Below, piece by piece: positions 4,944 through 56,396 of a stretch of DNA of 64,000 bases. Origin of the DNA: Candidatus Eiseniibacteriota bacterium. Lineage in GTDB: Bacteria; Eisenbacteria; RBG-16-71-46; SZUA-252. A program made the translations under genes and the position numbers. The notes beneath the pieces are model-generated. The model was not told the origin of the DNA, made no database searches, and saw nothing but the letters and a program-made list of their open reading frames with translations. The stretch lies in contig VBOZ01000017.1 in assembly GCA_005893305.1 (NCBI GenBank), forward strand, positions 12,853 through 76,852, read 5' to 3'. Position 1 is the stretch's first letter, and the number at the start of each line of letters is the position of its first letter.

Positions 4944-5447
4944 ATGGTCAAGGGGAACTGGGCGCTCTTCGAGGAAGACTTCTATTCGATGACCCTCATC
5001 CTCCAGACGTTGATGAGGACCGCCAACTCGCGCAGCGTGATGCTGATCGACAAGACGGGCCAGCTCATCAGCACCGTGGGGACACCACCCGATTTCGACG
5101 TCATCTCCTTCTCGTCCCTCGCGGCGGCCGATTTCGGCGCCAACGCGGAGCTGGCGAAGATGGTCGGTGAAAAGGACTTCGCCACCCTCGTCCACCAGGG
5201 GAAGGACGACAGCCTCTACCTCTCGATGATCGCGAACCGCGTGATCCTGGTCGTGCTCTTCGACAAGAAGACCTCGCTCGGCCTCGTGCGGTTGAAGGCG
5301 AAGCGGGCATCGGACGACCTCCAGGTCGTGCTGGACAAGGTTTTCAACAAGTTGCAGTACAAGAACGAGGACATCGCGACGACGACCCTCGGAGCGGACT
5401 TCGCGGCCGAAGCGGAAAGCGAGATCGACAGCCTCTTCAAAGACTAG
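4944..5447 (+). CDS. mglB: MglB roadblock/LC7-family GTPase-activating protein
   Basis: Strong similarity to Myxococcus MglB ([48 protein letters not shown], acidic C-terminal SEIDSLFKD); AAGGAG RBS 7 nt upstream. Confidence 0.85.
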
Positions 5448-5461
5448 GAGCCCAAAGCTTC

Positions 5462-6040
5462 GTGTCGCTGATCAATTACTCGTCCCGCGAGATCAACTGC
5501 AAGATCGTCTACTACGGTCCGGGTCTCTGCGGGAAGACCACGAATCTCCAACACATCTATTCGAGGGTTCCACAGGATACGCGGGGGAAGATGATTTCCC
5601 TCGCAACCGAGATGGACCGGACCCTCTTCTTCGACTTTCTTCCGCTCGAGCTGGGCCAGATCCGCGGATTCCGCACCCGATTCCACCTGTATACCGTCCC
5701 CGGCCAGGTCTACTACAACGCGAGCAGAAAGCTCATCTTGAAGGGGGTCGACGGGCTCGTCTTCGTCGCGGACTCCCAGATCGACCGCTTCGAGGCGAAC
5801 ATCGAGAGCCTCGTGAACATGCACGACAACTTAGCCGAGCATGGCCTCTCGTCCGAAAAGGTTCCGCTCGTGATCCAATACAACAAGCGCGATCTCCCGC
5901 GCGTCGTGTCCGTACCCGATCTCGAGAAGGAGTTGAACCCGAAGGGCGTTCCGTTCTACGAAGCCGTCGCGCTCCGGGGCACGGGGGTGTTCGACACCCT
6001 CAAGCTGACCTGTAAGCTCGTCCTGAAGACCCTCGGCTAG
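5462..6040 (+). CDS. mglA: MglA Ras-like polarity/motility GTPase
   Basis: Near-identical motifs to M. xanthus MglA: [73 protein letters not shown]; GTG start. Confidence 0.95.
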
Positions 6041-6044
6041 CCGC

Positions 6045-6503
6045 ATGCGGCGCCTCGCCGTCTTGCTCGCGACGGGCTTCGGCGTCGGCTACATCCCGCT
6101 CGCTCCCGCCTCGTGGGCGTCGCTCGGCACCGCGCTCTGCCTCCTCCCGTTCCTGCCCCGCTTCGACCCCTGGATCCTCGGGGCCGTCATCCTCGCGGTG
6201 ACCGCGCTCGGCGTTTGGGCGGCCGGCGAGGCGGAGCGCCCGCTCGGCCGCGATGCCGGCCCGATCGTGATCGACGAAATCGCGGGGATGCTTCTCGCCG
6301 TGTGGGCGGTCCCGCTCGGGAGCAGGCCGCTCGTCATGCTCGCCCTCGCGTTCGTGCTCTTCCGATGCCTCGACGTCTGGAAGCCGTTCCCGATCCGCCA
6401 GAGCCAGCACCTTCCCGGAGGCTGGGGGGTCATGGTCGACGACATCCTGGCCGCCGCCGTGACGAACCTTCTCCTGCGCGCCGCCGCGCTCGTGGTCCGA
6501 TGA
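6045..6503 (+). CDS. pgpA: phosphatidylglycerophosphatase A
   Basis: GFGVGYIPLAPASWASLG...IDEIAGM...CLDVWKPFPI PgpA family motifs; 152 aa. Confidence 0.8.
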   Translation: MRRLAVLLATGFGVGYIPLAPASWASLGTALCLLPFLPRFDPWILGAVILAVTALGVWAAGEAERPLGRDAGPIVIDEIAGMLLAVWAVPLGSRPLVMLALAFVLFRCLDVWKPFPIRQSQHLPGGWGVMVDDILAAAVTNLLLRAAALVVR

Positions 6504-9477: not shown

Positions 9478-10002
9478 ATGCCGCTTCGACCGGATCGGGC
9501 AATTTCGGAGGACGCGGCCAAGGAGGCCGCGCTCCGGATCTTGGAGCGCGGACCGAGGACCGAGCAGGAGGTCTTCGACCGGCTCCTGGCACGAGGATTC
9601 GTCCAAGACGCGGTGGAGCGCGCCATCGAGCGGCTCCGCCGCGTCTCACTTCTGGACGACCGCGCCTTCATGCGCACCTTTCTCCGGACCGAGATCCCGC
9701 GCCGCCCGCAGGGACGCCGGCTCCTCGTCGTGAAGCTCAGGCGAAGAGGAATCCCGGCCGCGCTTCTCGAGGAGCTCGATCAGCTCCTCGCGGAGGACCC
9801 CGATCTCGCGGAGCGGTCGCTCGACACCGAGGAGGGAAGGGCGCGGGCCGCGCTCGCGCAGATGGAGCGGCGCCTTGCCCGGCGCGACGCCGCGGATCGC
9901 GCCCGCCGCATGCAAGGAGCCTTGGTGCGGCGCGGGTTCGACTGGAGCACCGTGCGCGATCTTGTGACCTACGCGAGAGACGAGGGCCAAGAGCCACACT
10001 GA
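9478..10002 (+). CDS. recX: RecA regulator RecX
   Basis: Three-helix repeat RecX pattern (ALRILERGPRTEQEV...RAFMRTFL); follows recA, precedes alaS as in E. coli. Confidence 0.85.
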   Translation: MPLRPDRAISEDAAKEAALRILERGPRTEQEVFDRLLARGFVQDAVERAIERLRRVSLLDDRAFMRTFLRTEIPRRPQGRRLLVVKLRRRGIPAALLEELDQLLAEDPDLAERSLDTEEGRARAALAQMERRLARRDAADRARRMQGALVRRGFDWSTVRDLVTYARDEGQEPH

Positions 10003-12680
10003 TGCGAACGACCGGAAGCAACGAGCTCCGCCAGCTCTTCATCGATTTCTTCAAGGAGCGTGGGCATCCGCACCTCCCCCAAGCTCCCCTCGTCCCGCTC
10101 GACGATCCGACGCTGCTCTTTACGTCGGCGGGGATGGTTCCGTTCAAGCCGTACTACTCGTCGCCGCTCCCTCCGCCGACGCGCCGCGCGGTCACGGTCC
10201 AGCGGTGTCTTCGCCTCACCGACATCGAGAACGTCGGAATCACCGTGCGCCACGCCACCTTCTTCGAGATGCTGGGCAACTTCTCGTTTGGCGACTACTT
10301 CAAGCGCGAGGCGATCGAGTGGGCGTGGGAGTTCGCCACGAAGGTTCTGGAGATGCCGGCGGACCGGCTCTGGCCCTCGGTGTTTCGCGAGGACGATGAG
10401 GCCTTCGATCTCTGGGCCAAGCACATCGGCCTCGGGGCGAAGCGCGTGGTCCGCCTGGGCGAAAAGGACAATTTCTGGGGCCCGGCGGGCGGCTCCGGCC
10501 CGTGCGGCCCCTGCTCGGAGATCTACTGGGATCAGGGCCCCGGGGTCGGCTGCGGCCGCGCCGAATGCGCGCCCGGCTGCGACTGCGAGCGCTTCCTCGA
10601 GTTCTGGAATCTCGTGTTTCCCCAATTCGACCAGGCACCCACGGGCGAGCGGAAGCCGCTCGCGAACCGGGGCATCGACACCGGGATGGGCCTCGAGCGG
10701 CTCGCCATGATCCTCCAGGGCGTTCCGTCGGTCTTCGACAACGATCTTCTAGCGCCGATCGGCGACGCGGTGCGGCGGATGGGGAGCGCCAAGGAAGCGG
10801 CGGGCGACCGCGGCCGCCACGCGTCGCGCGTCATCACCGACCACATGCGCGCGCTCGTCTTCACCTTCGCCGAGGGGTTGCTTCCCTCGAACGAGGGACG
10901 CGGCTACGTGGTGCGGCGCCTGCTCCGCCGCGCGGCCCGGCTCGGCCGCTACGTCGGGATCCAGGGCACGTTCCTCTCGCGTCTCGTTCCCGTCGTCGTG
11001 AAACAGATGGCCGCGTACGAGGAGTACGCGTTTCTCGAGCGGGAAGAGCCGGCGGTCGCTGCGGCGATCCTCGAGGAGGAGACGCGGTTCGCGGAGACGT
11101 TGGAGCAGGGAGTGGCGCGTTTCGAGGAGACCGCGGCGGCACTGGAGAAGCGGAAGGAAAAGTCGTTCCCGGGCGCGGTTGCCTTTCAGCTCTACGACAC
11201 GTTCGGATTTCCGATCGACCTGACGATCGAGATGGCGGGCGAGCGCGGCCTCACGGTCGACATGCCCGCGTATGAGGGCGCGATGGAGGAGCAGCGCGAT
11301 CGCGCGCGAAAGTCGGCGCGGTTCGGATCGCGCCGCGACGAGGGGGGCGCCTGGCGCTCCCTGAGCGAGGGGCCGCACTCGGAATTTCGCGGATACGACG
11401 AGTGGGCTCTCGACGGCGTCTCGATTCGCGCGATGCGCGACCTCCCGGCCGGCGGCGCGGGCGCGCCCCGGGAGATCGAGCTCACGCTAGACCGGACGCC
11501 CTTCTACGCGGAAGGGGGCGGGCAGGTCGGGGATACCGGCTGGATCACGTCGATGCAGGGCGCCGCGAAGGCGCGCCTCCGCGTCGTCGATACGTACCGG
11601 GAGGGCGATTCGATCGTCCACCGGGCGGAGATCGTGGAAGGGACGCCGCACGCCGGCCCGTACCGCGCCGAGGTCCACGCGGAGAAGCGCGCGGCGACCC
11701 AGCGGAATCACACCGCCACGCACCTCCTGCACGCGGCGCTCCGCGGACGGCTGGGCACCCACTTGAAGCAAGCCGGCTCGCTCGTCGCGCCCGACCGTCT
11801 TCGTTTCGATTTCAGCCATGGGAAGGCGCTCGGGCCCGAGGATCTCCACGCGATCGAGGGCGAGGTGAATTCGAAGATCTTAGCCGACCTTCCGGTCCGG
11901 ACCGAGATCACGTCGCTCAAGGAAGCGCAGGAGAAGGGAGCGATGGCCCTCTTCGGGGAGAAATACGGCGAGCGAGTGCGCCAGGTGATCGTCGAGGACT
12001 ATAGCCGGGAGCTCTGCGGCGGATGCCACGTGCGGCGCACCGGGGAGATCGGCTACATGCGGATCGAGTCCGAAGCCGCGATCGCCGCGGGGACGCGGCG
12101 GGTCGAGGCGTTGACCGGGGCGCTCGCCTACAAGCGCGCGGAGGAGGATCGGGCGCTTCTCCGGGAGCTCGCCGCCCGCCTCGGCGCGCCGCGCGAGCAG
12201 CTGGCGGGCCGGGTTCAAGCGCTCCAGGAAGAGGCGCGCCGGCTCCACGAGCGCCAGACGAAGCAGAGCAAGGAGCAGCTCACCGAGCGGGTTCTCGAGC
12301 TGATCCGGAAGGCCAAGACGAAAGGCGATCCCCCGCTGGTCTCGGCCTCGGTGGAGGCGGCGAGCGTGGAGGAGCTCCGCGACGCGAGCGACCTGATCCG
12401 AAAGGGGCTTCCCAACGGGGGCGGACTTCTGGCCGCCGTGATCGACGGGAAGCTCTCGGTCGCGGCCTCGGTCGGTCCGGAGGCGGTGGATCGCTTGGCG
12501 GCCGATGCCTGGGTGCGCGACGCCGTATCGATCGCGGGGGGCAAGGGCGGAGGGAAGAAAGAGATGGCGGTGGCCGGCGCGAAGGACGCGTCGCGTCTCC
12601 GTGAGATCTTGGAGAGAGGTGTCGCGTTCGCGGAGGAGCGCTTGAAGGGATCGAAGACGGCGAGGTCGGCGGGCGCATGA
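10002..12680 (+). CDS. alaS: alanine--tRNA ligase
   Basis: 892 aa; class II motifs FTSAGMVPFKPYY, GNFSFGDYFK, editing domain HxxxH/CxxxH (NHTATHLLHAAL ... CGGCH), C-terminal DHHA1. Confidence 0.97.
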   Translation: MRTTGSNELRQLFIDFFKERGHPHLPQAPLVPLDDPTLLFTSAGMVPFKPYYSSPLPPPTRRAVTVQRCLRLTDIENVGITVRHATFFEMLGNFSFGDYFKREAIEWAWEFATKVLEMPADRLWPSVFREDDEAFDLWAKHIGLGAKRVVRLGEKDNFWGPAGGSGPCGPCSEIYWDQGPGVGCGRAECAPGCDCERFLEFWNLVFPQFDQAPTGERKPLANRGIDTGMGLERLAMILQGVPSVFDNDLLAPIGDAVRRMGSAKEAAGDRGRHASRVITDHMRALVFTFAEGLLPSNEGRGYVVRRLLRRAARLGRYVGIQGTFLSRLVPVVVKQMAAYEEYAFLEREEPAVAAAILEEETRFAETLEQGVARFEETAAALEKRKEKSFPGAVAFQLYDTFGFPIDLTIEMAGERGLTVDMPAYEGAMEEQRDRARKSARFGSRRDEGGAWRSLSEGPHSEFRGYDEWALDGVSIRAMRDLPAGGAGAPREIELTLDRTPFYAEGGGQVGDTGWITSMQGAAKARLRVVDTYREGDSIVHRAEIVEGTPHAGPYRAEVHAEKRAATQRNHTATHLLHAALRGRLGTHLKQAGSLVAPDRLRFDFSHGKALGPEDLHAIEGEVNSKILADLPVRTEITSLKEAQEKGAMALFGEKYGERVRQVIVEDYSRELCGGCHVRRTGEIGYMRIESEAAIAAGTRRVEALTGALAYKRAEEDRALLRELAARLGAPREQLAGRVQALQEEARRLHERQTKQSKEQLTERVLELIRKAKTKGDPPLVSASVEAASVEELRDASDLIRKGLPNGGGLLAAVIDGKLSVAASVGPEAVDRLAADAWVRDAVSIAGGKGGGKKEMAVAGAKDASRLREILERGVAFAEERLKGSKTARSAGA

Positions 12681-13444
12681 GTGGCCAGGGGCGCATGAGA
12701 GACATCGGACGGTCGCTCGTCGAGTCGGCGGTTCGCCAGGGCGCGGCGCACCTCGTTCTGATCGACCCGGATCGCGTTTCGCCGGAGCGCGCGACCGATC
12801 TCGCGCGCGAGTGCGCGGATGCGTTCGTGGACGCGATCCTGATCGGGAGCAGCACGCCGCCTGAGCGGGATCCCGCCCTCATTCTCGGCGCGATTCGACG
12901 CGGCGCCGACCTTCCGATCATCCTGTTCCCCGGCGCCGCCGATCAGCTCTTTCCCGGGGTCGACGCGGTTCTCTTCCTCTCGCTCCTCTCCGGCCGCGAT
13001 GCGCGCTACCTCGTGGACGAGCAGGTCCGCGGCGCGCCCAAGCTCCTGGCGTGGGGGATCGAGGCGATTCCGACCGGGTATCTCCTGATCGGAGACTCGG
13101 AGGAGTCGACCGTCGCGCGCGCGACCGGCACCTCGCCGCTTCCCGCCGAGCCGCCCGCCCGGGTCGTGGCCCACGCTCAGGCGGCGGCCTGCCTCGGGAT
13201 GGCGATGGTCTACCTCGAAGGCGGGAGCGGAGCCCGTAGCCACGTGCCCGCCTCCCTCGTCCGCGCGGTATCGCGCGCCGTGCCGACGCCGGTCGCGGTC
13301 GGCGGCGGCATCCGCCATCCCGCCGAGGCGGCCGCGCTGGTCGCCGCGGGCGCGCGGTTCATCGTGACGGGCACCGCGCACGAACGGGGGCTCCCCGTGC
13401 GCCCCTTCACCGACGCCGTCCACGGCGCCGTGGTGACGGTCTGA
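12677..13444 (+). CDS. pcrB: (hepta/geranylgeranyl)prenylglyceryl phosphate synthase, PcrB/GGGPS family (TIM-barrel)
   Basis: 255 aa; PcrB/GGGPS pattern: HLVLIDPDR..., ILIGSS, FLSLLSGRDARYLV, MVYLEGGSG, AVGGGIR, FIVTGTA; ATG overlaps alaS stop. Confidence 0.75.
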   Translation: MSGQGRMRDIGRSLVESAVRQGAAHLVLIDPDRVSPERATDLARECADAFVDAILIGSSTPPERDPALILGAIRRGADLPIILFPGAADQLFPGVDAVLFLSLLSGRDARYLVDEQVRGAPKLLAWGIEAIPTGYLLIGDSEESTVARATGTSPLPAEPPARVVAHAQAAACLGMAMVYLEGGSGARSHVPASLVRAVSRAVPTPVAVGGGIRHPAEAAALVAAGARFIVTGTAHERGLPVRPFTDAVHGAVVTV

Positions 13445-13446
13445 GC

Positions 13447-14517
13447 ATGGCGATGAAGGCCCTGATCCTGAGCGGCGGCAAGGGAACGCGGCTTCGGCCG
13501 ATCACCCACACGAGCGCCAAGCAGCTCGTGCCGATCGCGAACAAGCCGATCATCTTCTACGGGATCGAAGCGATCCGCGCTTCCGGGATCACGGACGTGG
13601 GGATCGTCGTCGGCGACACCGAGGCGGAGATCCGCGCCGCGGTGGGGGACGGGTCCGCGTTCGGGATCAAGGTCACGTACATCCGGCAGGACGCGCCGCG
13701 CGGCCTCGCGCACGCGGTGAAGGTCTCCCAGGGATTCCTGGGCGAGGACACCTTCGTGATGTACCTCGGCGACAACCTCATCCTGGACGGGATCACGCCG
13801 CTGGTCGAGGAGTTCCGGCGCGACCGTCCGAACAGCCAGATCCTCCTCGCGCGGGTCCCGCACCCGGAGGAGTTCGGCGTCGCCGAATTGGACGGAGATC
13901 GCATCAAGCGGCTGGTCGAGAAGCCGAAGGAGCCCAAGTCCGATCTCGCCCTCGTGGGCGTCTACATGTTCGACGCCACCATCTTCGAGGCGGTCGACGC
14001 GATCAAGCCGTCGTTCCGGAACGAGCTCGAGATCACCGACGCGATCCAGCACCTGATCGACCGCGGGCGGGTCGTACGGCACCACATCATCGACGGGTGG
14101 TGGAAGGACACGGGAAAGCTCGAGGACATTCTCGAGGCGAACCGCATGGTCCTCTCGCGCGCCAAGCGCTCGCTCCAGGGCACGCTCGACGCCCAGACGA
14201 AGGCCGAGGGCGAGGTGATCGTCTCGAAGGGGACCGTCGTCAAGAACTCGATCCTCCGCGGCCCGCTCACCCTGGGCGAGCGGTGCGTCATCGAGAATTC
14301 GTACATCGGACCGTTCTCGTCGATCTACGACGACGTGACGATCCGGAACAGCGAGATCGAGCACTCGATCGTCCTCGAGCGCTGCACGATCCAGGATGTC
14401 CCGGTCCGGATCGAAGCCAGCCTGATCGGCAAGGAGGTCAGCATCCAGCGCTCGCAGCGGAAGCCCTCGGCCTACCGCTTCATGCTCGGCGATTCGAGCT
14501 TGGTGGACGTCCTGTAG
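13447..14517 (+). CDS. sugar-1-phosphate nucleotidyltransferase, long form with C-terminal LbH domain (RmlA/glucose-1-P thymidylyltransferase-like)
   Basis: LILSGGKGTRLRPITHTSAKQLVPIANKPII signature, 356 aa with hexapeptide-repeat C-terminus. Confidence 0.8.
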   Translation: MAMKALILSGGKGTRLRPITHTSAKQLVPIANKPIIFYGIEAIRASGITDVGIVVGDTEAEIRAAVGDGSAFGIKVTYIRQDAPRGLAHAVKVSQGFLGEDTFVMYLGDNLILDGITPLVEEFRRDRPNSQILLARVPHPEEFGVAELDGDRIKRLVEKPKEPKSDLALVGVYMFDATIFEAVDAIKPSFRNELEITDAIQHLIDRGRVVRHHIIDGWWKDTGKLEDILEANRMVLSRAKRSLQGTLDAQTKAEGEVIVSKGTVVKNSILRGPLTLGERCVIENSYIGPFSSIYDDVTIRNSEIEHSIVLERCTIQDVPVRIEASLIGKEVSIQRSQRKPSAYRFMLGDSSLVDVL

Positions 14518-14522
14518 GGCCC

Positions 14523-15383
14523 ATGCGTGTCCTGATCACCGGCGCGAACGGAATTCTGGGACGGGCCCTCTCCGAGCGGTTGGGGGGAGCGCACACGCTC
14601 TACCTCTGGGGACGGGACGAGGCCGACCTGACCGACGAGGCGCAGGTCCGCGGGGCCGGCAAGTCGATCGCCTTCGAGGCCGTCGTCCATGCGGCCGCGA
14701 TGACCAACGTCGACGGGTGCGAATCGGAGCCCGACCGGGCCATGGCGGTCAATCGGGACGCGACGCGCCACGTGGCGGATCTGGCGCGCGAGCGGGGCGC
14801 GATCTTCGTCTACGTGAGCACCGATTACGTGTTCGACGGCTCCAAAGGGTCCCCCTACATGGAAGAGGATCCTACCGGTCCGATCAACGTGTACGGGCGA
14901 ACGAAACTCGCGGGCGAGGAGGCGGCGCGGGCTTCGGGCGCGCCCTGCCTCGTGGTCCGCACCTCCTGGCTCTTCGGCCCGGGAGGGAAGAACTTCGTCG
15001 ATACGATCGCGACGAAGCTCGGCCGCGGCGAGAACCTCGAGGTGGTCGACGACCAGCGCGGATCGCCGACCTACGCGCGGGATCTGGCCCACGCGATCGA
15101 GATCCTCCTTCGACGCGGCGCGCTCGGAACGGTCCACGTCACCAACTCCGGCCAGACCACCTGGCACGGTCTCTCCGTCGAGATCGCGCGGTATCTTGGA
15201 TCCCCGGCCACCGTCGCGCCGACCACTTCCGAAAAATTCCGACGGCCCGCGCCGCGCCCCAAATACTCGGTCCTCTCGGGCGCGCGATTCCACGCGTTGA
15301 CCGGGGAGAGCCTGAGACCGTGGGAGGAGGCGGTCCACCACTACCTGGCCTCCCGGAAGGCGATCGCGGGGGAGCCCGCGTGA
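14523..15383 (+). CDS. rmlD: dTDP-4-dehydrorhamnose reductase-like NAD(P)-dependent sugar reductase (RmlD family)
   Basis: MRVLITGANGILG Rossmann, YVSTDYVFDG, YGRTKLAGE (YxxxK) RmlD motifs. Confidence 0.8.
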   Translation: MRVLITGANGILGRALSERLGGAHTLYLWGRDEADLTDEAQVRGAGKSIAFEAVVHAAAMTNVDGCESEPDRAMAVNRDATRHVADLARERGAIFVYVSTDYVFDGSKGSPYMEEDPTGPINVYGRTKLAGEEAARASGAPCLVVRTSWLFGPGGKNFVDTIATKLGRGENLEVVDDQRGSPTYARDLAHAIEILLRRGALGTVHVTNSGQTTWHGLSVEIARYLGSPATVAPTTSEKFRRPAPRPKYSVLSGARFHALTGESLRPWEEAVHHYLASRKAIAGEPA

Positions 15384-15982
15384 AGCGCGCGAGCTCTGCG
15401 GTCGGCTCAGGGGTGGCGAGCTCGATCCGCCGCGGGCTGGAAGAGTCGGCGGGGCTCCTCCTCGAGCTGCTCGCGCGGGACGGGGCCCGGATCGAGCGGA
15501 TGGCGAAGCTCTTCGGCTCGACCTTGGCGCGCGGCCGGACGATCTTCTTCTGCGGAAACGGCGGGAGTGCGGCCGAGGCGCAGCACCTTGCGGCCGAGCT
15601 GGTCGGGCGCTTCGTTCGCGAGCGCCGCGCGCTCCCGGCGGTGGCGCTCACGACCGACAGCTCGATCCTCACGTCCGTCGGGAACGACTACGGCTTCGCG
15701 CGCATCTTCTCGCGGCAGATCGAAGCATTGGGCCGCCGCGGCGATCTCCTCGTCGTGCTTACGACCAGCGGGAAATCGCCGAACGTCCTCGCGGCGGTCC
15801 GCGCGGCCCGGGCGCGTGGGCTTCGCGTGGCGGGCCTGACCGGCGCGCGCGGGGCCGCCTTCGCCCGCCGCTGCGATCTCTGCATCGTGGTCCCGAGCCG
15901 CTCCACGCCGCGCGTCCAGGAAGCCCACCTCGCCCTCGGCCATCTCTGCTGCGAGCGGGCGGAGGAGATGGCCCGGCGGTGA
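15380..15982 (+). CDS. gmhA: D-sedoheptulose-7-phosphate isomerase (SIS domain, GmhA)
   Basis: FFCGNGGSAAEAQHLAAEL, SILTSVGNDYGF, VLTTSGKSPNVL SIS motifs; GTG overlaps rmlD stop. Confidence 0.75.
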   Translation: MKRASSAVGSGVASSIRRGLEESAGLLLELLARDGARIERMAKLFGSTLARGRTIFFCGNGGSAAEAQHLAAELVGRFVRERRALPAVALTTDSSILTSVGNDYGFARIFSRQIEALGRRGDLLVVLTTSGKSPNVLAAVRAARARGLRVAGLTGARGAAFARRCDLCIVVPSRSTPRVQEAHLALGHLCCERAEEMARR

Positions 15983-16884
15983 TCCGCGACGTTCTGCGAT
16001 CGATGCGGCCCTATCAGTGGACGAAGAACCTCGTCCTCTTCGCGGGCCTGGTCTTCACCCTCAAGATTCTCGAGCCGCCGTTCGTCCTGGCCGCCGTCGC
16101 CGGATTCTTCGCGTTCTCGATCGCGGTCTCGGGCGCCTACCTGGCGAACGACGTCCTCGACGTGGAGCGGGACCGGCTCCATCCCGACAAGCGGAATCGC
16201 CCGGTCGCGTCGGGCCGCCTCCCAATCCGCGCGGCCATGGCGTGGTCCGCGGTGCTTCTGGCCGCCGGCCTGGGCGGCTGCTTTTTCCTCGGACCGCGGT
16301 TCGGCGCGACGGCGGCCGCCTACGTGGCGCTCACGGTCGCGTACTCGCTCTTTCTCAAGCAGGTCGTGCTTCTCGACGTTGTATCGATCGCGCTCGGATT
16401 CGTGCTTCGCGCCACGGCCGGGGTCGAGCTCCTCCGGGATCGAAGCGGCGCCGGAGGACAGCAGATCGAGATCAGCCCGTGGCTTCTCCTCTGCGCGTTC
16501 TTTCTCGCGCTCTTTCTCGCGATCGGAAAGCGCCGGCACGAGCTCGCCGTTCTCGAAGGAGACGCGTCGCGCCACCGCGCGGCACTCGGAAGCTATAACG
16601 AGAAGCTCCTCGACCAGCTCGTGGCCGTCGTGACCAGCGCCACCGTGCTCGCCTACTCCATCTATACGATCGCTCCCGAGACGGTCGCCAAGTTCGGGGG
16701 CCGTCCCCTCTACCTCACCATCCCGTTCGTCCTGTACGGAATTTTCCGCTACCTCTACCTCATGTACGCGCAGGACAAGGGCGGCAATCCCTCCGAGCAC
16801 CTGCTTCGCGACCGCGCGACCTTCGTGAACGTCGCCCTCTGGGCGCTTGCGGTTCTCGCCATTCTCACCTGGTCCCGCCGCTAG
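15979..16884 (+). CDS. UbiA-family prenyltransferase, decaprenyl-phosphate 5-phosphoribosyltransferase (DPPR synthase, Rv3806c)-like
   Basis: RPYQWTKNLVLFAG (cf. RPRQWVKNVLV), AYLANDVLDVERDRLHPDKRNRPVASG Asp-rich motif, ~9 TM helices, C-terminal LLRDRATFVNVALWA resembling DPPR synthase; GTG overlaps gmhA stop. Confidence 0.75.
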   Translation: MIRDVLRSMRPYQWTKNLVLFAGLVFTLKILEPPFVLAAVAGFFAFSIAVSGAYLANDVLDVERDRLHPDKRNRPVASGRLPIRAAMAWSAVLLAAGLGGCFFLGPRFGATAAAYVALTVAYSLFLKQVVLLDVVSIALGFVLRATAGVELLRDRSGAGGQQIEISPWLLLCAFFLALFLAIGKRRHELAVLEGDASRHRAALGSYNEKLLDQLVAVVTSATVLAYSIYTIAPETVAKFGGRPLYLTIPFVLYGIFRYLYLMYAQDKGGNPSEHLLRDRATFVNVALWALAVLAILTWSRR

Positions 16885-16887
16885 GTC

Positions 16888-17756
16888 ATGGTCGCGCCCG
16901 CCGCGATCCGGGTTCGATGCCCGGCAAAGGTCAATCTGGGCCTGTGGGTTCTCGGACGCCGCGAAGACGGATACCACGAAGTCGATACGATCATGCAAGC
17001 GGTGACGCTCGAGGACGAGCTCACGCTCGAGGCGGCGCCGGAGGGCTTCGCGCTCCACACGCGCGGGATCCCGATACCAGCGGACGGCCCCAACCTCGTG
17101 GAGCGGGCTTGGCATCTCATCTCCGAGCGCGCGGCAGAGGCGAAATTCCTATTCCGATCGGAGCAGGGCTCGGCGGCGGGAGCAGCGACGCTGCCGGTTT
17201 ACTCGCGGGAGTGAATCATCTGCTCGCGCTGAGGCTCACGAAGACCGAGCTTCAATCATTGGGGGCGCGACTTGGCTCTGACGTTCCTTTCTTTTTCGAG
17301 GGCGGAACGGCGCGCGCGACGGGCCGGGGCGAGAGGGTGAGACAACTTTGTCCCATCGAGCCCTTCTGGGCGGTCCTCGTAACCCCACCTATAGCAATTT
17401 CAACAACTTGGGCCTACGGCCGCATCAGATTTTATTTGACACCGAAATCGCGCGGAGCTACTCTCCTCGCGTCGGCGATCGGTAGCCGGGAGTGGGGCGC
17501 GGTTGCGGACGCGATGCACAACGTTTTCGAGGACGTTGTCCTTCCAGAGTTCCCAAGTCTCGCAGAGCTGAAGCGCTCACTCATCGGCTGCGGCACGGTG
17601 AATGCGCTGCTGTCGGGGAGCGGATCGACACTCTACGGTGTCACGCGCTCGTTCGACGAGGCGATGAGGGCCGCGAAGGGAATCGCGGGTCGGGGCGCTG
17701 AGGTTCGTGTGGTCAGGACTCTGGAGCGAGGCGTCTACGTTGCCCGACGTGCGTAA
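16888..17756 (+). pseudogene. ispE: 4-diphosphocytidyl-2-C-methyl-D-erythritol kinase IspE, disrupted by a -1 frameshift near 17138-17142 (probable 1-nt deletion in a G-run; likely assembly error)
   Basis: N-terminal part (PAKVNLGLWVLGRREDGYHEVDT...) in frame 16888, GHMP-kinase core (IPIPIGAGLGGGSSDAAG...LSGSGSTLYGV) continues in the -1 frame through 17756. Confidence 0.8.
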
Positions 17757-17866
17757 TTTCATCGTCCCCCACGACGGCGGCAATGCGGTGCGAGGCCAGA
17801 GACATCGGTGAGGTCCTTAGGGCTTCGAGGGATCGGGGCCCGGAACTCGAGGCGGGTGAGACGGTT

Positions 17867-18157
17867 ATGACACTCGAGATAACTGAAGTCCGCGTATCGC
17901 TCAGGGACGATGATAAGCTCAAAGCCTTCGCCAGCATGACGTTCAACGATGCCTTCGTGATCCGGGGTCTCAAGATCATCGAAGGCACCAACGGGATGTT
18001 CGTCGCGATGCCGAGCCGGAAGCGTCCGGATGGGACGTACCAGGATGTGGCCCATCCGATCAACAACGAGACGCGCAAGTTCATCGAGGATCGGATTCTC
18101 GACGAATATCAAAGGGAACGGGCGAAGCAGCCCTCCCTAATCGGAACGGTGCTCTAG
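17867..18157 (+). CDS. spoVG: septation protein SpoVG
   Basis: MTLEITEVRVSL...KAFASMTFNDAFVIRGLKIIEGTNGMFVAMPSRK SpoVG signature; 96 aa. Confidence 0.9.
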   Translation: MTLEITEVRVSLRDDDKLKAFASMTFNDAFVIRGLKIIEGTNGMFVAMPSRKRPDGTYQDVAHPINNETRKFIEDRILDEYQRERAKQPSLIGTVL

Positions 18158-18529: not shown

Positions 18530-19543
18530 ATGACTGTGAAGCTGGCAACGGATCGGCGCGCTGCGCCCTCGGCCAAGGCTCAACCAGAATCCCCGCGGAT
18601 GCGCTCCGCGGAGACTCGCCTGCGCCTCTTCACGGGCAACGCCAACCGGCCGCTCGCGGCGGCGATCTGCGACTACCTGCAGATAGAGATCGGCGACGCC
18701 AGCGTGGACCAGTTCGCGGACGGCGAGACGTTCGTCAAGATCAACGAGAACATCCGAGGCTCCGACATCTTCGTGTTCCAGCCGACGTTCGCGCCGGCGA
18801 CCAATTTGATGGAGCTCCTCGTGATGATCGACGCGGTGCGGCGCGCTTCGGCCCGGCGGGTAACGGCGGTCATTCCGTACTTCGGCTTCCAGCGGCAGGA
18901 CCGGAAGGACCAGCCGCGGGTGCCGATCACGGCCAAGCTGGTGGCGAACTTGATCACGACGGCGGGAGCCGATCGCGTCATGACGATGGATCTCCACTCG
19001 GCGCAGATCCAAGGATTCTTCGACATCCCGTTCGATCATCTCTACGCGGCGCCGGTCCTGGTCGACTATTTCCTGCGCCTCCAGATCCCGAACATGGTGG
19101 TCGTGGCGCCGGACATCGGGAGCGTGAAGATGGCGCGCGCGTACGCGAAGCGGCTCAGCGCGAGCCTCGCCATCGTCGACAAGAGGCGGCCGCGGCCGGA
19201 CGCGGTGGAGATGATGAACGTGATCGGTGAAGTGGACGGGAAGAACGTCGTGATCTTCGACGACATCGTGAGCACGGGCTCGACGCTGATCGAGGCGGCG
19301 CGGGCCCTGAAAGACGCGGGGGCGCTCGAAATCTACGCCGCCGCGACGCACGGCGTGCTCTGCGGCGACGCCAAGCGGCAAATCGACCGCTCGGTGGTGA
19401 AGGAGCTGATCGTCACCGACAGCCTCCCGCACGACCCATCCACCCTCCCGGAGAAGATCCGGGTCCTTTCGGTGGCTGATCTCTTGGGCGAGGCGATCCG
19501 TCGCATCCACGACGAGGAATCGCTCAGCTCGCTGTTTATCTGA
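18530..19543 (+). CDS. prs: ribose-phosphate pyrophosphokinase (PRPP synthetase)
   Basis: LFTGNANRPLAAAI, DGETFVKINENIRG, PYFGFQRQDRK, DLHSAQIQGFFDIP, PRPP-binding VIFDDIVSTGST; GGGAGG RBS 7 nt before ATG 18530 (alternative ATG 18599). Confidence 0.93.
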   Translation: MTVKLATDRRAAPSAKAQPESPRMRSAETRLRLFTGNANRPLAAAICDYLQIEIGDASVDQFADGETFVKINENIRGSDIFVFQPTFAPATNLMELLVMIDAVRRASARRVTAVIPYFGFQRQDRKDQPRVPITAKLVANLITTAGADRVMTMDLHSAQIQGFFDIPFDHLYAAPVLVDYFLRLQIPNMVVVAPDIGSVKMARAYAKRLSASLAIVDKRRPRPDAVEMMNVIGEVDGKNVVIFDDIVSTGSTLIEAARALKDAGALEIYAAATHGVLCGDAKRQIDRSVVKELIVTDSLPHDPSTLPEKIRVLSVADLLGEAIRRIHDEESLSSLFI

Positions 19544-53715: not shown

Positions 53716-55230
53716 GTGTCCGCGGCCGGCCGCGACTATCCCGCCGACCGTCGCGCCCGGGTGGCGGCGATCCTACGCCGCCAGGCGGAAGCCCTGGGAG
53801 TCCAAGACCTTTCCCTCGAACCTCTGAAGCGATTCGAGCGTCCCAATTGTTTAGCGGTGGTGGCGGGCCAGCAGCCGGGGCTCTTCGGGGGCCCTCTCTA
53901 CACGCTCTACAAGGCGCTCACCGCGATCTCCCTGGCCCGGAATCTCGAGGCGGCCTCGGGCCGCCCGGTCGTTCCGATCTTTTGGGTCGCCTCCGACGAC
54001 CACGATTTCGAGGAGGTCCGACGCGCGTGGCTGATCGACGGTGGATCGGAGCCGAGCGTGCTCGAGTATCCGGCCGAAGCGGCTCCGCCAGGCGTCTCGC
54101 TCTCGCGGGTTCGCCTGGGTCCGGAGATCGCGTTGCTTACGGATCGCGTCGAGTCGCTCCTTCCGGCGTCAGAGTTTCGCGACCGGGTGATGGGGCCGCT
54201 CCGCGCGGCGTACGCTCCGGGCCGATCGTGGACCGAGGCGTTCGCGCGCTTCATGGCCGGCTTGGTGACGCCGCTCGGCGCGTTGGTGTTCGATCCGTCC
54301 GATTCCGAGGCCAGGGCGCTCTCGCTCCCGGTGTTCGAGCGCGAGGTGGCCCTGATGGGGAACTCATCCAAGGCGGCGCGCGAGCGAGGCGAGGAGCTGA
54401 CGCGACGCGGCTACCATGCCCAGATCGCGCGCGCGGGGAACGAGCTCAATCTCTTCTGGCACCAGGAAACGCGCGACGCCGTTCGGGTCGAGGGGGGCGG
54501 CACCCTGCGCGTCGGGGCGAAGGGCCGCAGCATGAAGCCCGAGGCCCTGATCGCGGCGATCCGGGCGAGGCCCGAGGACGCGAGTCCCGGCGTGCTCCTG
54601 CGTCCGATGGTGCAGGACTACCTCCTCCCGACCGCGGTCTACGTGGGCGGTCCGTCGGAGGTGGCGTACTGGGCCCAGGTCAACGCGCTCTACCCGCTCT
54701 TCGAGATGCCGGCGCCGGCGGTCGCCCCGAGAGCGGGCGCCACGCTCCTCGAGCCGAAGGTCGCGAAAACCCTGGGGCGGTTCGGCATCGAGTGGACGGC
54801 GCTCGCGGGGGACGTCGAGGGGGTCGTGAGCAGCTCGATCGGCTCGCTTCTGCCGCCCGATTTTCCCGAGACGTTCGAGCGGGAGCGGGAGACCTGGCTG
54901 CAGAGCTTTGAGCGGCTCAAAGCCAAGGTCGTGGAGTTCGATCCGTCGCTCCAGGCGGCGGTCGCGACCGCCGCACGCAAGGTGGAGCACGAGGGCTTGG
55001 GGCTGGAGCGGAAGCTGATGCAGGTCTGGAAACGGCGTCAGGAGGAATCGGTGCAGCAGATCCGCCGCGCGCGCGCACACCTCTTCCCGGAGGGGAGGCT
55101 CCAAGAGCGCGTCTATTCGCCCGTCGGCTACGCGGCGCGCTACGGACCCGAGCTGGCCGCGCAGCTGGCCGCGGCGCTCGGCGCGCCCGGATCCCACGTT
55201 CTCATTTCGCTCGGAGGCTCGGACCAGTGA
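53716..55230 (+). CDS. bshC: bacillithiol biosynthesis cysteine-adding enzyme BshC (coordinates from first canonical start; conserved sequence continues upstream to ~53527)
   Basis: VVAGQQPGLFGGPLYTLYKALTAI...PIFWVASDDHDFEEV, ...GGPSEVAYWAQ; upstream in-frame SDFEHLLHPTALYRDFLTSPGRVRDFYPV resembles BshC N-terminus but has no ATG/GTG/TTG. Confidence 0.75.
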   Translation: MSAAGRDYPADRRARVAAILRRQAEALGVQDLSLEPLKRFERPNCLAVVAGQQPGLFGGPLYTLYKALTAISLARNLEAASGRPVVPIFWVASDDHDFEEVRRAWLIDGGSEPSVLEYPAEAAPPGVSLSRVRLGPEIALLTDRVESLLPASEFRDRVMGPLRAAYAPGRSWTEAFARFMAGLVTPLGALVFDPSDSEARALSLPVFEREVALMGNSSKAARERGEELTRRGYHAQIARAGNELNLFWHQETRDAVRVEGGGTLRVGAKGRSMKPEALIAAIRARPEDASPGVLLRPMVQDYLLPTAVYVGGPSEVAYWAQVNALYPLFEMPAPAVAPRAGATLLEPKVAKTLGRFGIEWTALAGDVEGVVSSSIGSLLPPDFPETFERERETWLQSFERLKAKVVEFDPSLQAAVATAARKVEHEGLGLERKLMQVWKRRQEESVQQIRRARAHLFPEGRLQERVYSPVGYAARYGPELAAQLAAALGAPGSHVLISLGGSDQ

Positions 55231-56396
55231 AGATCGGCATCTCCTGCTATCCCACCCACGGTGGCTCCGGCGTCGTCGCGACGGAGCTGGGGATCGAGCT
55301 TGCCCGGCGCGGGCACGAGATCCACTTCATCTCATATTCGATCCCGTTCCGCCTCAAGTCCTACCAGGAAGACGTCTATTTTCACGAGGTGCAGGTCACC
55401 TCGTATCCGCTCTTCCAGTATCCGCCCTACACCCTGGCGCTCGCCGCCAAGATGGCCGAGGTGGCGGACGAGGTGGGGCTCGACGTCGTCCACGCGCACT
55501 ACGCGATCCCGCATGCCATCTGCGCCTATCTCGCGCGCCAGGTCGCGGCGTCTACCAAGCTCCGCATCGTGACCACACTCCACGGGACGGACATCACCCT
55601 CGTCGGATCGGATCAGTCGTTCCGCACCCTCACCCGATTCGGAATCGATCAGAGCGACGGCGTCACCGCGGTCTCGGAGTTCCTCCGCCGGAAGACGGTC
55701 GAGGTGTTCCGGCCCCAGCGCGCGATCCAGGTGATCCCGAACTTCGTCGACACGTCCCGATACGCTCCGCGCGATCCGGGGAAATCCAGGCGGGAGCGGT
55801 TCGCGAAGAAGGGGGAGAAGATCCTTGTCCACATCTCCAACTTCCGGCCGAGCAAGCGGGTCGAGGACGTGGTTCGCGTCTTCGCTGCCGTCCGTCGCGA
55901 GGTGCCCAGCGTCCTCCTGATGGTCGGCGACGGCGCGGATCGCACGCGGAGCCGCGAGATCGCGGTCTCGCTCGGGGTGGAGCGCTACATTCGCTATCTG
56001 GGCCAGCTCGACGCGGTGGAGGACGTGCTCTCGGCGGGCGATCTGTTCCTGCTCACCAGCTCGAACGAGAGCTTCGGCCTTGCCGCGCTCGAGGCGATGT
56101 CGTCGGGTGTCCCCGTGATCGGGACGACCGCGGAAGGGCTCCCCGAGCTGATCGAGTCGGGGAAGAGCGGATACCTGCTCCCGGTCGGCGACGTCGAAGG
56201 CATGTCCCGCCGGGCGACCGAGATCTTGACCGATGAGAAGCTCCACGCCGCGATGGCGCGCGAAGCCCGCCGCGTCTCGATCGAGCGCTACGAGGCGAGC
56301 AAGGTAGTCCCGATGTACGAGGAGTTCTACGCCCGCGTCACCGGACAGCCGGTGGGCGCCACCGGATACCTCGCGCCGCCCGAAGGGCTGGCTTAG
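55227..56396 (+). CDS. bshA: N-acetyl-alpha-D-glucosaminyl L-malate synthase BshA (GT4 glycosyltransferase)
   Basis: Close to B. subtilis BshA: KIGISCYPTHGGSGVVATELG..RGHEIHFIS.SIPFRL, VVHAHYAIPHAICAYLA, TTLHGTDIT, GT4 E-x7-E region; GTG overlaps bshC stop. Confidence 0.8.
   Translation: MKIGISCYPTHGGSGVVATELGIELARRGHEIHFISYSIPFRLKSYQEDVYFHEVQVTSYPLFQYPPYTLALAAKMAEVADEVGLDVVHAHYAIPHAICAYLARQVAASTKLRIVTTLHGTDITLVGSDQSFRTLTRFGIDQSDGVTAVSEFLRRKTVEVFRPQRAIQVIPNFVDTSRYAPRDPGKSRRERFAKKGEKILVHISNFRPSKRVEDVVRVFAAVRREVPSVLLMVGDGADRTRSREIAVSLGVERYIRYLGQLDAVEDVLSAGDLFLLTSSNESFGLAALEAMSSGVPVIGTTAEGLPELIESGKSGYLLPVGDVEGMSRRATEILTDEKLHAAMAREARRVSIERYEASKVVPMYEEFYARVTGQPVGATGYLAPPEGLA

Follow-up and report, generated by a model that had tools for sequence, protein, structure and literature searches.

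A repeatedly lost pcrB and four retained sugar- and lipid-linked genes within a housekeeping array of Candidatus Eisenbacteria

We analyzed 64,000 nucleotides of contig VBOZ01000017.1 from Candidatus Eiseniibacteriota bacterium (Eisenbacteria below; this whole stretch is 'the window', with positions counted from its first letter), in which the genes pcrB, rmlA_long, rmlD, gmhA and ubiA lie between alaS and ispE. An initial annotation had proposed that these five genes form a single pathway to a glycosylated ether or polyprenyl lipid. Comparison with other genomes disfavors a five-gene pathway, because four of the genes persist without pcrB in Eisenbacteria and pcrB occurs without them in other phyla. 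We think it likely instead that the locus holds two separable units set in a housekeeping array, namely a dispensable geranylgeranylglyceryl-phosphate synthase (GGGPS) and an envelope glycan-precursor module. The five open reading frames (ORFs) have the coordinates first assigned to them, are co-oriented and tightly packed, and on the evidence in brackets are assigned as follows.

12677-13444, + strand: pcrB, group II GGGPS of the type found in Fibrobacteres-Chlorobi-Bacteroidetes (FCB) bacteria (PF01884, TIGR01768)
13447-14517, + strand: rmlA_long, long-form sugar-1-phosphate nucleotidyltransferase (TIGR01208, PF00483)
14523-15383, + strand: rmlD, dTDP-4-dehydrorhamnose reductase, an extended short-chain dehydrogenase/reductase (SDR) (TIGR01214, PF04321)
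15380-15982, + strand: gmhA, sedoheptulose-7-phosphate isomerase of the SIS fold (SIS_2, match to 2xbl, catalytic residues)
15979-16884, + strand: ubiA, predicted UbiA-fold polyprenyl-phosphate 5-phosphoribosyltransferase (PPPRS), of the decaprenyl-phosphate (DPPRS) type (PF01040, NF008977, alignment to Rv3806c)

Conservation of the array and loss of pcrB

Scanning a genome collection with an alignment of PcrB gave 80 loci (handles such as L083 denote single loci); in the high-GC Eisenbacteria loci the neighboring genes were read by tblastn and from precomputed gene calls. All Eisenbacteria loci found through PcrB and having enough sequence share the order alaS-pcrB-rmlA-rmlD-gmhA-ubiA-ispE-spoVG-prs, and these genes are not neighbors by accident. 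The initial annotation had staked its reading on the five genes co-occurring in relatives. The array is indeed conserved among related genomes, and the expectation holds for rmlA-rmlD-gmhA-ubiA, which co-occur throughout, and fails for pcrB.

The failure became visible when contigs were also looked up through UbiA, an approach that is unbiased as to the presence of pcrB and to which a metagenome scan with UbiA added close relatives. pcrB is missing from L083, L084, L130 and L131, in which alaS overlaps or abuts rmlA and the rest of the array is unchanged; close relatives (L085, L089 and L095) carry it intact. Two further loci, L118 (6147-6458) and L086 (800-1114), keep a pcrB remnant in which residues ~9-69 are fused in frame to residues ~202-246, a deletion (residues ~70-201) of about 130 residues that takes the YLExGSGA motif with it and most of the barrel. 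Both loci come from close relatives of the window organism (alaS 89% and RmlA 96% identical) and lie very near the pcrB-bearing L095, and their remnants are recent gene decay, caught in soil metagenomes. The nine UbiA-found loci with a visible junction thus divide into three with intact pcrB, two with a remnant and four with none. By comparison, rmlA-rmlD-gmhA-ubiA is retained in 18/18 comparable loci, with UbiA still 73-81% identical in genomes that have no pcrB. Of the five genes, pcrB is moreover the one conserved least across L003-L009, where its identity is 59-67% while UbiA reaches 68-77% and RmlA 75-79%.

In a neighbor-joining tree of concatenated RmlA, RmlD and GmhA (844 columns, no bootstrap), the pcrB states are mixed. 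L095, which has the gene, is sister to L086 and L118 with their remnants, L082 (pcrB present) is sister to L130 (absent), and the pcrB-less L083/L084 and L131 fall on separate branches. Because the tree interleaves these states and the position of pcrB after alaS is ancestral in FCB phyla, it implies that pcrB was lost at least three times independently. The 3.1 Mb and 821 kb contigs bearing pcrB-less loci appear in none of the PcrB clusters, which suggests that the gene is truly absent from them rather than relocated.

Some sequences at the Eisenbacteria level of similarity carry labels of other lineages. The loci L008 and L002 and the UbiA proteins P0198, P0203 and P0214 bear the labels Hyphomicrobiales, Latescibacterota/Latescibacteria and Limnocylindrales, yet pcrB is 62-70% identical in the two loci and UbiA 73-77% in the three proteins. 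L008 has all the genes in the Eisenbacteria order, and L002 reads recA-alaS-pcrB up to the end of its contig. These are probably contigs of mis-binned or mislabeled metagenome-assembled genomes.

The idea of a translationally coupled five-gene unit downstream of alaS stands insofar as the genes are tight and on one strand. Four-nucleotide overlaps (GTGA) occur at two of the four internal junctions, rmlD/gmhA and gmhA/ubiA, and not at the other two, where pcrB and rmlA are separated by 2 nt and rmlA and rmlD by 5 nt. The GTG start of gmhA overlaps the rmlD stop, and a second in-frame GTG, an alternative start, lies at 15413. What does not stand is the boundary of the unit. The alaS stop and the pcrB start overlap (ATGA), and the ubiA stop lies 3 nt before the ispE start. 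Because this packing runs past both ends, the five genes belong to a longer series, recA-recX-alaS-...-ispE-spoVG-prs-rplY-pth-rpsF, whose other members in the window include the following.

10002-12680, + strand: alaS, alanyl-tRNA synthetase, upstream housekeeping gene (ORF and sequence)
16888-17756, + strand: ispE, 4-diphosphocytidyl-2-C-methyl-D-erythritol (CDP-ME) kinase, disrupted (TIGR00154, C-terminal frame only)
17783-18157, + strand: spoVG (ORF; Pfam-labeled order alike in relatives)
18530-19543, + strand: prs, phosphoribosyl pyrophosphate (PRPP) synthetase (ORF; followed by rplY, pth and rpsF)

The whole array is probably co-transcribed. No terminator-like site lies between genes of the alaS-ispE stretch and no sigma-70-like promoter was found; terminator-like matches all fall within coding sequence and do not exceed the shuffled expectation, so that a single transcript is neither supported nor refuted by them. 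We considered whether the proximity of prs might be a sign of PRPP channeling and rejected the idea, because the order ispE-spoVG-prs-rplY-pth is found in all relatives regardless of pcrB. An array ispE...spoVG...prs-ctc-pth is old, of housekeeping type and also present in Bacillus. As a separate observation, ispE in the window is split across two frames by a 28-nt deletion near 17115-17150, whereas its N- and C-terminal parts share one frame in relatives. The missing 28 nt are present in L085 (a 99.4%-identical metagenome contig), L086, L087, L089 and L093, and the deletion either stems from an error of assembly or makes ispE, an essential gene of the methylerythritol phosphate (MEP) pathway, a pseudogene specific to this strain.

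Identity of the five products

The five gene identities first proposed are upheld by hidden Markov model (HMM) family matches, alignments to solved structures and conserved residues. PcrB matches PF01884 (E=1e-30, 107 bits, cutoff 23.9) and passes TIGR01768, the GGGP family model (148 bits, cutoff 113), while lying slightly under two equivalog cutoffs (149 versus 161.6 for TIGR01769 and 236 versus 247 for NF003198). It scores 139-149 bits against the solved group II enzymes 4mm1, 6jo3 and 4jej, with 149 bits to the M. thermautotrophicus GGGPS 4mm1 (mtGGGPS) and 139 bits to F. johnsoniae 4jej, compared with 31-35 bits against the heptaprenylglyceryl phosphate synthase structures of B. subtilis and S. 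aureus (35 for B. subtilis PcrB). Judged by these scores, PcrB is a group II GGGPS, nearer to group II than to group I. Its barrel motifs DPD, FPG, SGR, YLExGSGA, GGGI and TGT are all intact. In an 18-sequence PcrB alignment, read at the level of motifs, D30-P31-D32, Y179, E181, G183-S184-G185, G209-G211 and G232 are invariant or nearly so, and in pairwise alignment the same residues are identical to those of mtGGGPS. The protein is thus predicted to be a Mg-dependent TIM-barrel enzyme that would form an ether bond between a polyprenyl diphosphate, probably geranylgeranyl diphosphate, and sn-glycerol-1-phosphate.

The closest sequence relatives of PcrB all come from the FCB superphylum and related candidate phyla, and the nearest homologues of both PcrB and UbiA carry the label Candidatus Eisenbacteria. 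At the site where hexamers have their 'aromatic anchor' (W141 of mtGGGPS), the window protein carries Arg148 (13118-13120). Arginine occupies it in Eisenbacteria PcrB, and tyrosine or phenylalanine in homologues from Zixibacteria, Marinimicrobia and Poribacteria. A charged residue at this site accompanies dimers in Flavobacteriales (PMC7888582), and Arg148 suggests a dimeric PcrB like those enzymes.

RmlA combines a nucleotidyltransferase domain with a C-terminal left-handed beta-helix and is placed by its scores among the long-form enzymes, with 473 bits against TIGR01208 (rmlA_long, cutoff 320), E=7.5e-56 against PF00483, and 49.5 bits against the HddC model (cutoff 300). Among solved structures it comes closest to B. 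anthracis RmlA 3hl3 (187 bits, full-length alignment). Long-form RmlA enzymes need not always be linked to rhamnose. RmlD reaches 292 bits against TIGR01214 (cutoff 224), 308 bits against PF04321 and 183 bits over its full length against RfbD 3sc6, with the STDYVFDG and YGxxK motifs aligned. GmhA is slightly below the cutoff of TIGR00441 (181 bits against 209) and aligns to Burkholderia pseudomallei GmhA 2xbl with 188 bits over 173 residues. In an alignment of the window protein and 40 pcrB-linked homologues, its zinc-binding and catalytic residues H69, E73, Q180 and H188 and the phosphate-binding S130 are kept in 39-41 of the 41 sequences. We also considered a DiaA-like replication factor, which is less likely, as the DiaA model gives 116 bits versus 188 for GmhA and the catalytic residues are kept.

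The UbiA-fold protein had been likened in the initial annotation to decaprenyl-phosphate phosphoribosyltransferases, and this affinity is borne out. It passes the cutoff of NF008977, the model of that family (270 bits, cutoff 234), and aligns over its full length with Mycobacterium tuberculosis Rv3806c (8j8j; 106 bits, residues 2-294 on 14-297). Models of digeranylgeranylglyceryl-phosphate synthase (DGGGPS) score far below their cutoffs (31.5 bits for NF009521, cutoff 296; 25 bits for NF009522, cutoff 353), and the solved DGGGPS 6m31 gives 26 bits across 77 residues only. The protein covers just positions 192-478 of the HAD-UbiA model NF006088 and so has no fused HAD phosphatase domain, and its relatives bear the PGAP name decaprenyl-phosphate phosphoribosyltransferase.

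The residues with which Rv3806c binds Mg2+, the pyrophosphate (PPi) of PRPP, the ribose 5-phosphate and the acceptor phosphate are known from structure and mutagenesis, and its phosphoribose-binding sites are, according to its authors, not shared with UbiA prenyltransferases (PMC10994848). Ten of 13 experimentally defined substrate-binding residues are identical in the window protein: R22, K28, Y70, N73, D77, K87, R90, Y138, K143 and K191 of Rv3806c correspond to R10, K16, Y54, N57, D61, K71, R74, Y122, K127 and K184. Y157 is replaced by F141, a phenylalanine variant that also occurs in some mycobacteria, and Q135 and K208 are unconserved (T119 and A201). Relative to Rv3806c there is a 9-residue loop insertion after the fifth transmembrane helix. 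The motifs quoted in the initial annotation are all in the protein, RPYQWTKN at residues 10-17, the Asp-rich NDVLDVERD at 57-65 and LRDR at the C-terminal end. On these comparisons the protein is best described as a PRPP-dependent PPPRS and not as a DGGGPS or a prenyltransferase of the MenA/UbiA type; its predicted reaction would convert polyprenyl phosphate and PRPP to polyprenyl-phospho-ribofuranose-5-phosphate and PPi.

More distant PPPRS homologues of other lineages, obtained in a metagenome scan with UbiA (37-49% identity), sit among recognizable partners. In L099 (6781-9870) the PPPRS homologue has a DprE1-like gene (FAD oxidase) and a DprE2-like gene (SDR) immediately upstream; L111 (8150-11618) and L114 have a family 2 glycosyltransferase (GT2) upstream and a PMT_2-type GT-C glycosyltransferase downstream, and in L113 (7790-9909) an extended-SDR epimerase is upstream. 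These contexts match the mycobacterial decaprenyl-phospho-arabinose (DPA) route and the published logic of pentofuranose donors (PMC11127046). In the described three-component systems a PPPRS is accompanied by a phosphatase, a flippase, a GT-C and optionally an SDR epimerase (Kelly et al. 2024, PMC11127046).

Partners of this kind are not found beside the window gene. We ran Pfam on essentially every ORF of the 64 kb window that is supported by third-position GC content (GC3). The scan found neither rmlB, rmlC nor a heptose kinase or phosphatase, in agreement with the earlier remark that rmlB/C and hddA/gmhB are absent nearby. It likewise found no GT-C, no flippase (MATE/SMR included), no PAP2 or HAD phosphoribose phosphatase that could serve as the 5-phosphatase of a three-component pentofuranose system, and no DprE1/E2, in the cluster or elsewhere in the window. 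Glycerol-1-phosphate dehydrogenase (G1PDH), DGGGPS, CarS and geranylgeranyl reductase are also not in the 64 kb window. The GT-C, flippase and phosphatase partners may lie elsewhere in the genome.

Neighborhoods in other phyla and competing readings

Across FCB phyla, alaS is immediately upstream of pcrB in 40/65 loci, and gmhA follows pcrB on the same strand within 2.6 kb in 40/64 (alaS-pcrB-gmhA examples are L081:5061-9362 and L053:10025-12632, among L010-L080). The distribution of gmhA is uneven by phylum. It comes after pcrB in Zixibacteria (9/9), Ignavibacteria (5/5), KSB1 (3/3), Calditrichota (2/2), Marinimicrobia (2/3) and Eisenbacteria (7/7), and is missing from this place in Poribacteria (0/13), Latescibacteria (0/3), Fibrobacterota (0/1) and Cloacimonadota (0/1). 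In phyla other than Eisenbacteria, the 10 kb around pcrB contain no rmlA, rmlD or ubiA, and a permissive tblastn of the 80 loci placed UbiA-family genes near pcrB in Eisenbacteria only. The pcrB-gmhA pair across phyla is a looser tie between FCB-type GGGPS and glycan genes, and it too can be separated in both directions.

Other glycan-type genes join the pair in particular lineages. A PHP phosphatase of the CpsB/CapC type (PF19567, E=1.5e-57; L020:10808-11605) sits between pcrB and gmhA in loci of the KSB1/Calditrichota type and recurs in L010, L019, L027, L029, L038, L040-L042, L058, L070 and L076; it also follows pcrB in some Latescibacteria, and could be a candidate for dephosphorylating prenylglyceryl phosphate. 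In Zixibacteria and Ignavibacteria, pcrB-gmhA is followed by Wzy_C (O-antigen ligase family), a DUF3098 membrane protein and a family 1 glycosyltransferase (GT1), with a fused nucleotidyltransferase-phosphomutase and a HAD phosphatase on the opposite strand. Coordinates for these pcrB-gmhA-associated genes are as follows.

L053:11367-12632
L033:5505-5786
L054:3892-5052
L023:12941-15451, - strand

We interpret the Eisenbacteria locus, with reasonable though not strong confidence, as two separable units in a housekeeping array. The first would be pcrB itself, an FCB-type group II GGGPS in its ancestral position after alaS that would make prenylglyceryl phosphate and is dispensable in the phylum. 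The second, rmlA_long-rmlD-gmhA-ubiA, would supply separate precursors of cell-envelope glycans. RmlA and RmlD would catalyze the first and last steps of a dTDP-hexose or dTDP-L-rhamnose branch, GmhA would provide D-glycero-D-manno-heptose-7-phosphate, and UbiA would make polyprenyl-phospho-ribofuranose-5-phosphate from PRPP, the type of lipid-linked donor on which periplasmic GT-C glycosyltransferases draw. The other steps (RmlB/C, the heptose kinase, phosphatase and nucleotidyltransferase, and the 5-phosphatase, flippase and GT-C) would be encoded elsewhere. The substrates are inferred, and so is the proposal that the products of the four genes serve envelope glycans instead of converging on a single compound.

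Several points weigh against this interpretation. The supply role is read from family membership alone, because genes on the partner and acceptor side are not found in the window. The order of the four genes is conserved, yet this does not prove a shared function, because the flanking housekeeping genes are equally syntenic in the phylum. The pcrB-gmhA pair in at least five other FCB phyla could mean a real functional link, which we treat here as historical. Finally, the count of pcrB losses comes from an unbootstrapped neighbor-joining tree, and the cluster listing is the sole indication that the gene is gone rather than relocated.

The four invariant genes could alternatively encode one dedicated route to a modified lipid-linked sugar donor, with the RmlD-like SDR and/or the SIS isomerase acting on polyprenyl-phospho-pentose in the role of DprE2 or of ORF13-type epimerases. 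The four invariably occur side by side in one order, with overlapping codons, the canonical rhamnose and heptose partners are not nearby, and there are precedents for an SDR beside a PPPRS (the DprE2-like gene in L099, the extended SDR in L113 and ORF13 of Citrobacter youngae). We nevertheless consider such a route unlikely. RmlD and RmlA_long are far over their equivalog cutoffs and align in full length, signature motifs included, with solved dTDP-sugar enzymes, GmhA has the zinc and catalytic set of true heptose isomerases, a DprE1-like oxidase is not present, and the flanking housekeeping synteny is as conserved within the phylum.

The initial proposal was that all five genes form one pathway, in which PcrB makes an ether-linked prenylglyceryl-phosphate lipid that is decorated with sugar by way of the nucleotide-sugar enzymes and the UbiA donor. 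Tight spacing, co-orientation and conservation of the array in many Eisenbacteria speak for it, as does the placement of FCB pcrB next to glycan genes elsewhere (gmhA in 40/64 loci, Wzy_C/DUF3098/GT1 and CpsB/CapC), and it is not known what becomes of the products of bacterial GGGPS (PMC7888582). Set against this are at least three losses or internal deletions of pcrB with the other four genes intact (absence in L083, L084, L130 and L131, deletion in L086 and L118), the phyla in which pcrB has no rmlA, rmlD or ubiA within 10 kb, and the pcrB loci of Poribacteria and Latescibacteria that have no gmhA. The cluster is also without a glycosyltransferase able to put sugar on a glycerol lipid. Synteny by itself is weak evidence here, because the alaS-pcrB adjacency is just as widespread and a functional link is implausible there. 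We regard the single pathway as improbable.

A bolder idea, to which we give little credence, is that the group II GGGPS product of FCB bacteria is not a bulk membrane lipid but the anchor or carrier of an envelope glycoconjugate containing heptose or pentofuranose. The alaS-pcrB-gmhA core of at least six phyla and the lineage-specific additions (Wzy_C/GT1, the CpsB phosphatase, or RmlA/RmlD/PPPRS) would then serve one function. If so, the Eisenbacteria cluster would be its most elaborate version, and strains without pcrB would have switched to another anchor.

It is very unlikely, in our view, that the PPPRS uses prenylglyceryl phosphate, the PcrB product, as its phosphoribosyl acceptor and so makes a new phosphoribosyl ether lipid. 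The reaction is chemically plausible, the PcrB product itself being a lipid phosphomonoester. Rv3806c recognizes its acceptor mainly through the phosphate (K28, Y157, K191) and a hydrophobic tunnel (PMC10994848), and ORF15 tolerates the short analogue farnesyl phosphate (PMC11127046). The genes are adjacent, and prs is 1.6 kb downstream. The reaction is without precedent, however, and ubiA persists under apparent purifying selection in genomes without pcrB. The proximity of prs is probably incidental, given that the housekeeping array is old and found in Bacillus too.

That PcrB and UbiA would be the GGGPS and DGGGPS of archaeal-type diether lipids, an alternative offered in the initial annotation, is all but refuted: a GGGPS and a UbiA-superfamily gene do share the cluster, and FCB bacteria have been reported with GGGPS and DGGGPS homologues (PMC7852524, PMC6431249), but the UbiA protein favors the DPPRS model at 270 bits over the DGGGPS models at 25-31, favors Rv3806c over 6m31, and conserves the 5-phosphate-binding residues, the K/R cluster for PPi and the lipid-phosphate residues, ubiA is kept where pcrB is lost, and the G1PDH, CarS and geranylgeranyl reductase of such a pathway are not in the window. 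In those reports, a GGGPS beside a UbiA-family gene is described only for Candidatus Cloacimonetes, where that gene is a DGGGPS (PMC7852524, PMC6431249) and where expressing the co-localized pair in E. coli led to PG-archaeol (PMC7852524). The UbiA neighbor in the window belongs to another clade, and a UbiA-family gene close to a GGGPS should not be taken for a DGGGPS without a check of its clade.

That FCB bacteria have GGGPS homologues is well documented, and so is the question of their role (PMC7852524, PMC6431249). Their function is a point at issue in the 'lipid divide' debate, to which a glycan-linked cluster would have been a useful lead, and the comparative data instead make pcrB a dispensable, repeatedly lost passenger in Eisenbacteria. 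Natural pairs of strains with and without pcrB are a ready comparison for the role of the bacterial ether lipid. The PPPRS, being universal in Eisenbacteria, predicts a pentofuranose-containing envelope glycan in this uncultured phylum.

Other window genes and comparison with known systems

The remaining genes of the window are housekeeping or unrelated. They include PpiC, a BFN nuclease, a Liv-type ABC transporter, SelA, a SPOR protein, SMC and FtsY, and further a PEMT-like gene, GGDEF, a sigma-54 activator, Nuo subunits, adenosine deaminase, PanD, NfeD/SPFH and Lpd. The stretch 53716-56396 holds BshC, of bacillithiol biosynthesis, and after it a family 4 glycosyltransferase (GT4) that is possibly BshA, a pair that hints at bacillithiol synthesis in this FCB-group candidate phylum. 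At 4944-6503, a Roadblock/LC7 (MglB-like) gene, a small Ras/Arf-like (MglA-like) GTPase and pgpA (phosphatidylglycerophosphatase A) form a trio that is kept in relatives.

Among characterized systems, the dTDP-L-rhamnose pathway shares RmlA_long and RmlD, both over their cutoffs, with the window and differs by its RmlB and RmlC, neither of which is in the window. B. pseudomallei GmhA has the four zinc and catalytic residues (His, Glu, Gln, His) and the Ser that binds phosphate in common with the window protein, whose gene differs in having no HldE/GmhB or HddA/HddC partners within the 64 kb and in being linked to pcrB in several FCB phyla. With Rv3806c, the mycobacterial DPPRS, and the PPPRS of the three-component pentofuranose systems of C. 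youngae (ORF15) and P. aeruginosa PA7, the window UbiA shares the UbiA fold, and the residues for Mg, PPi, 5-phosphate and acceptor phosphate are conserved; it differs in that a PAP2 phosphatase, DprE1/E2, a flippase and a GT-C are not adjacent.

PcrB shares its TIM-barrel family and motifs with the group II GGGPS of FCB bacteria (F. johnsoniae 4jej; Candidatus Cloacimonetes, Villanueva et al. 2021), from which the window gene is set apart by having no co-localized DGGGPS, by its repeated loss in the phylum and by the arginine at the anchor site. The group I heptaprenylglyceryl phosphate synthase PcrB of B. subtilis has the Pfam family and the type of reaction in common with the window protein and differs in matching it at only 35 bits, versus 149 to group II. 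The genomic context of Bacillus pcrB is another one as well, beside pcrA-ligA. Our literature search found no paper on Eisenbacteria and GGGPS, nor on GGGPS together with phosphoheptose isomerase. Each of the five genes is an ordinary further member of a known family, and what appear to be new are the arrangement of the genes in this lineage, the synteny of alaS-pcrB-gmhA across phyla and the natural polymorphism in the presence of pcrB.

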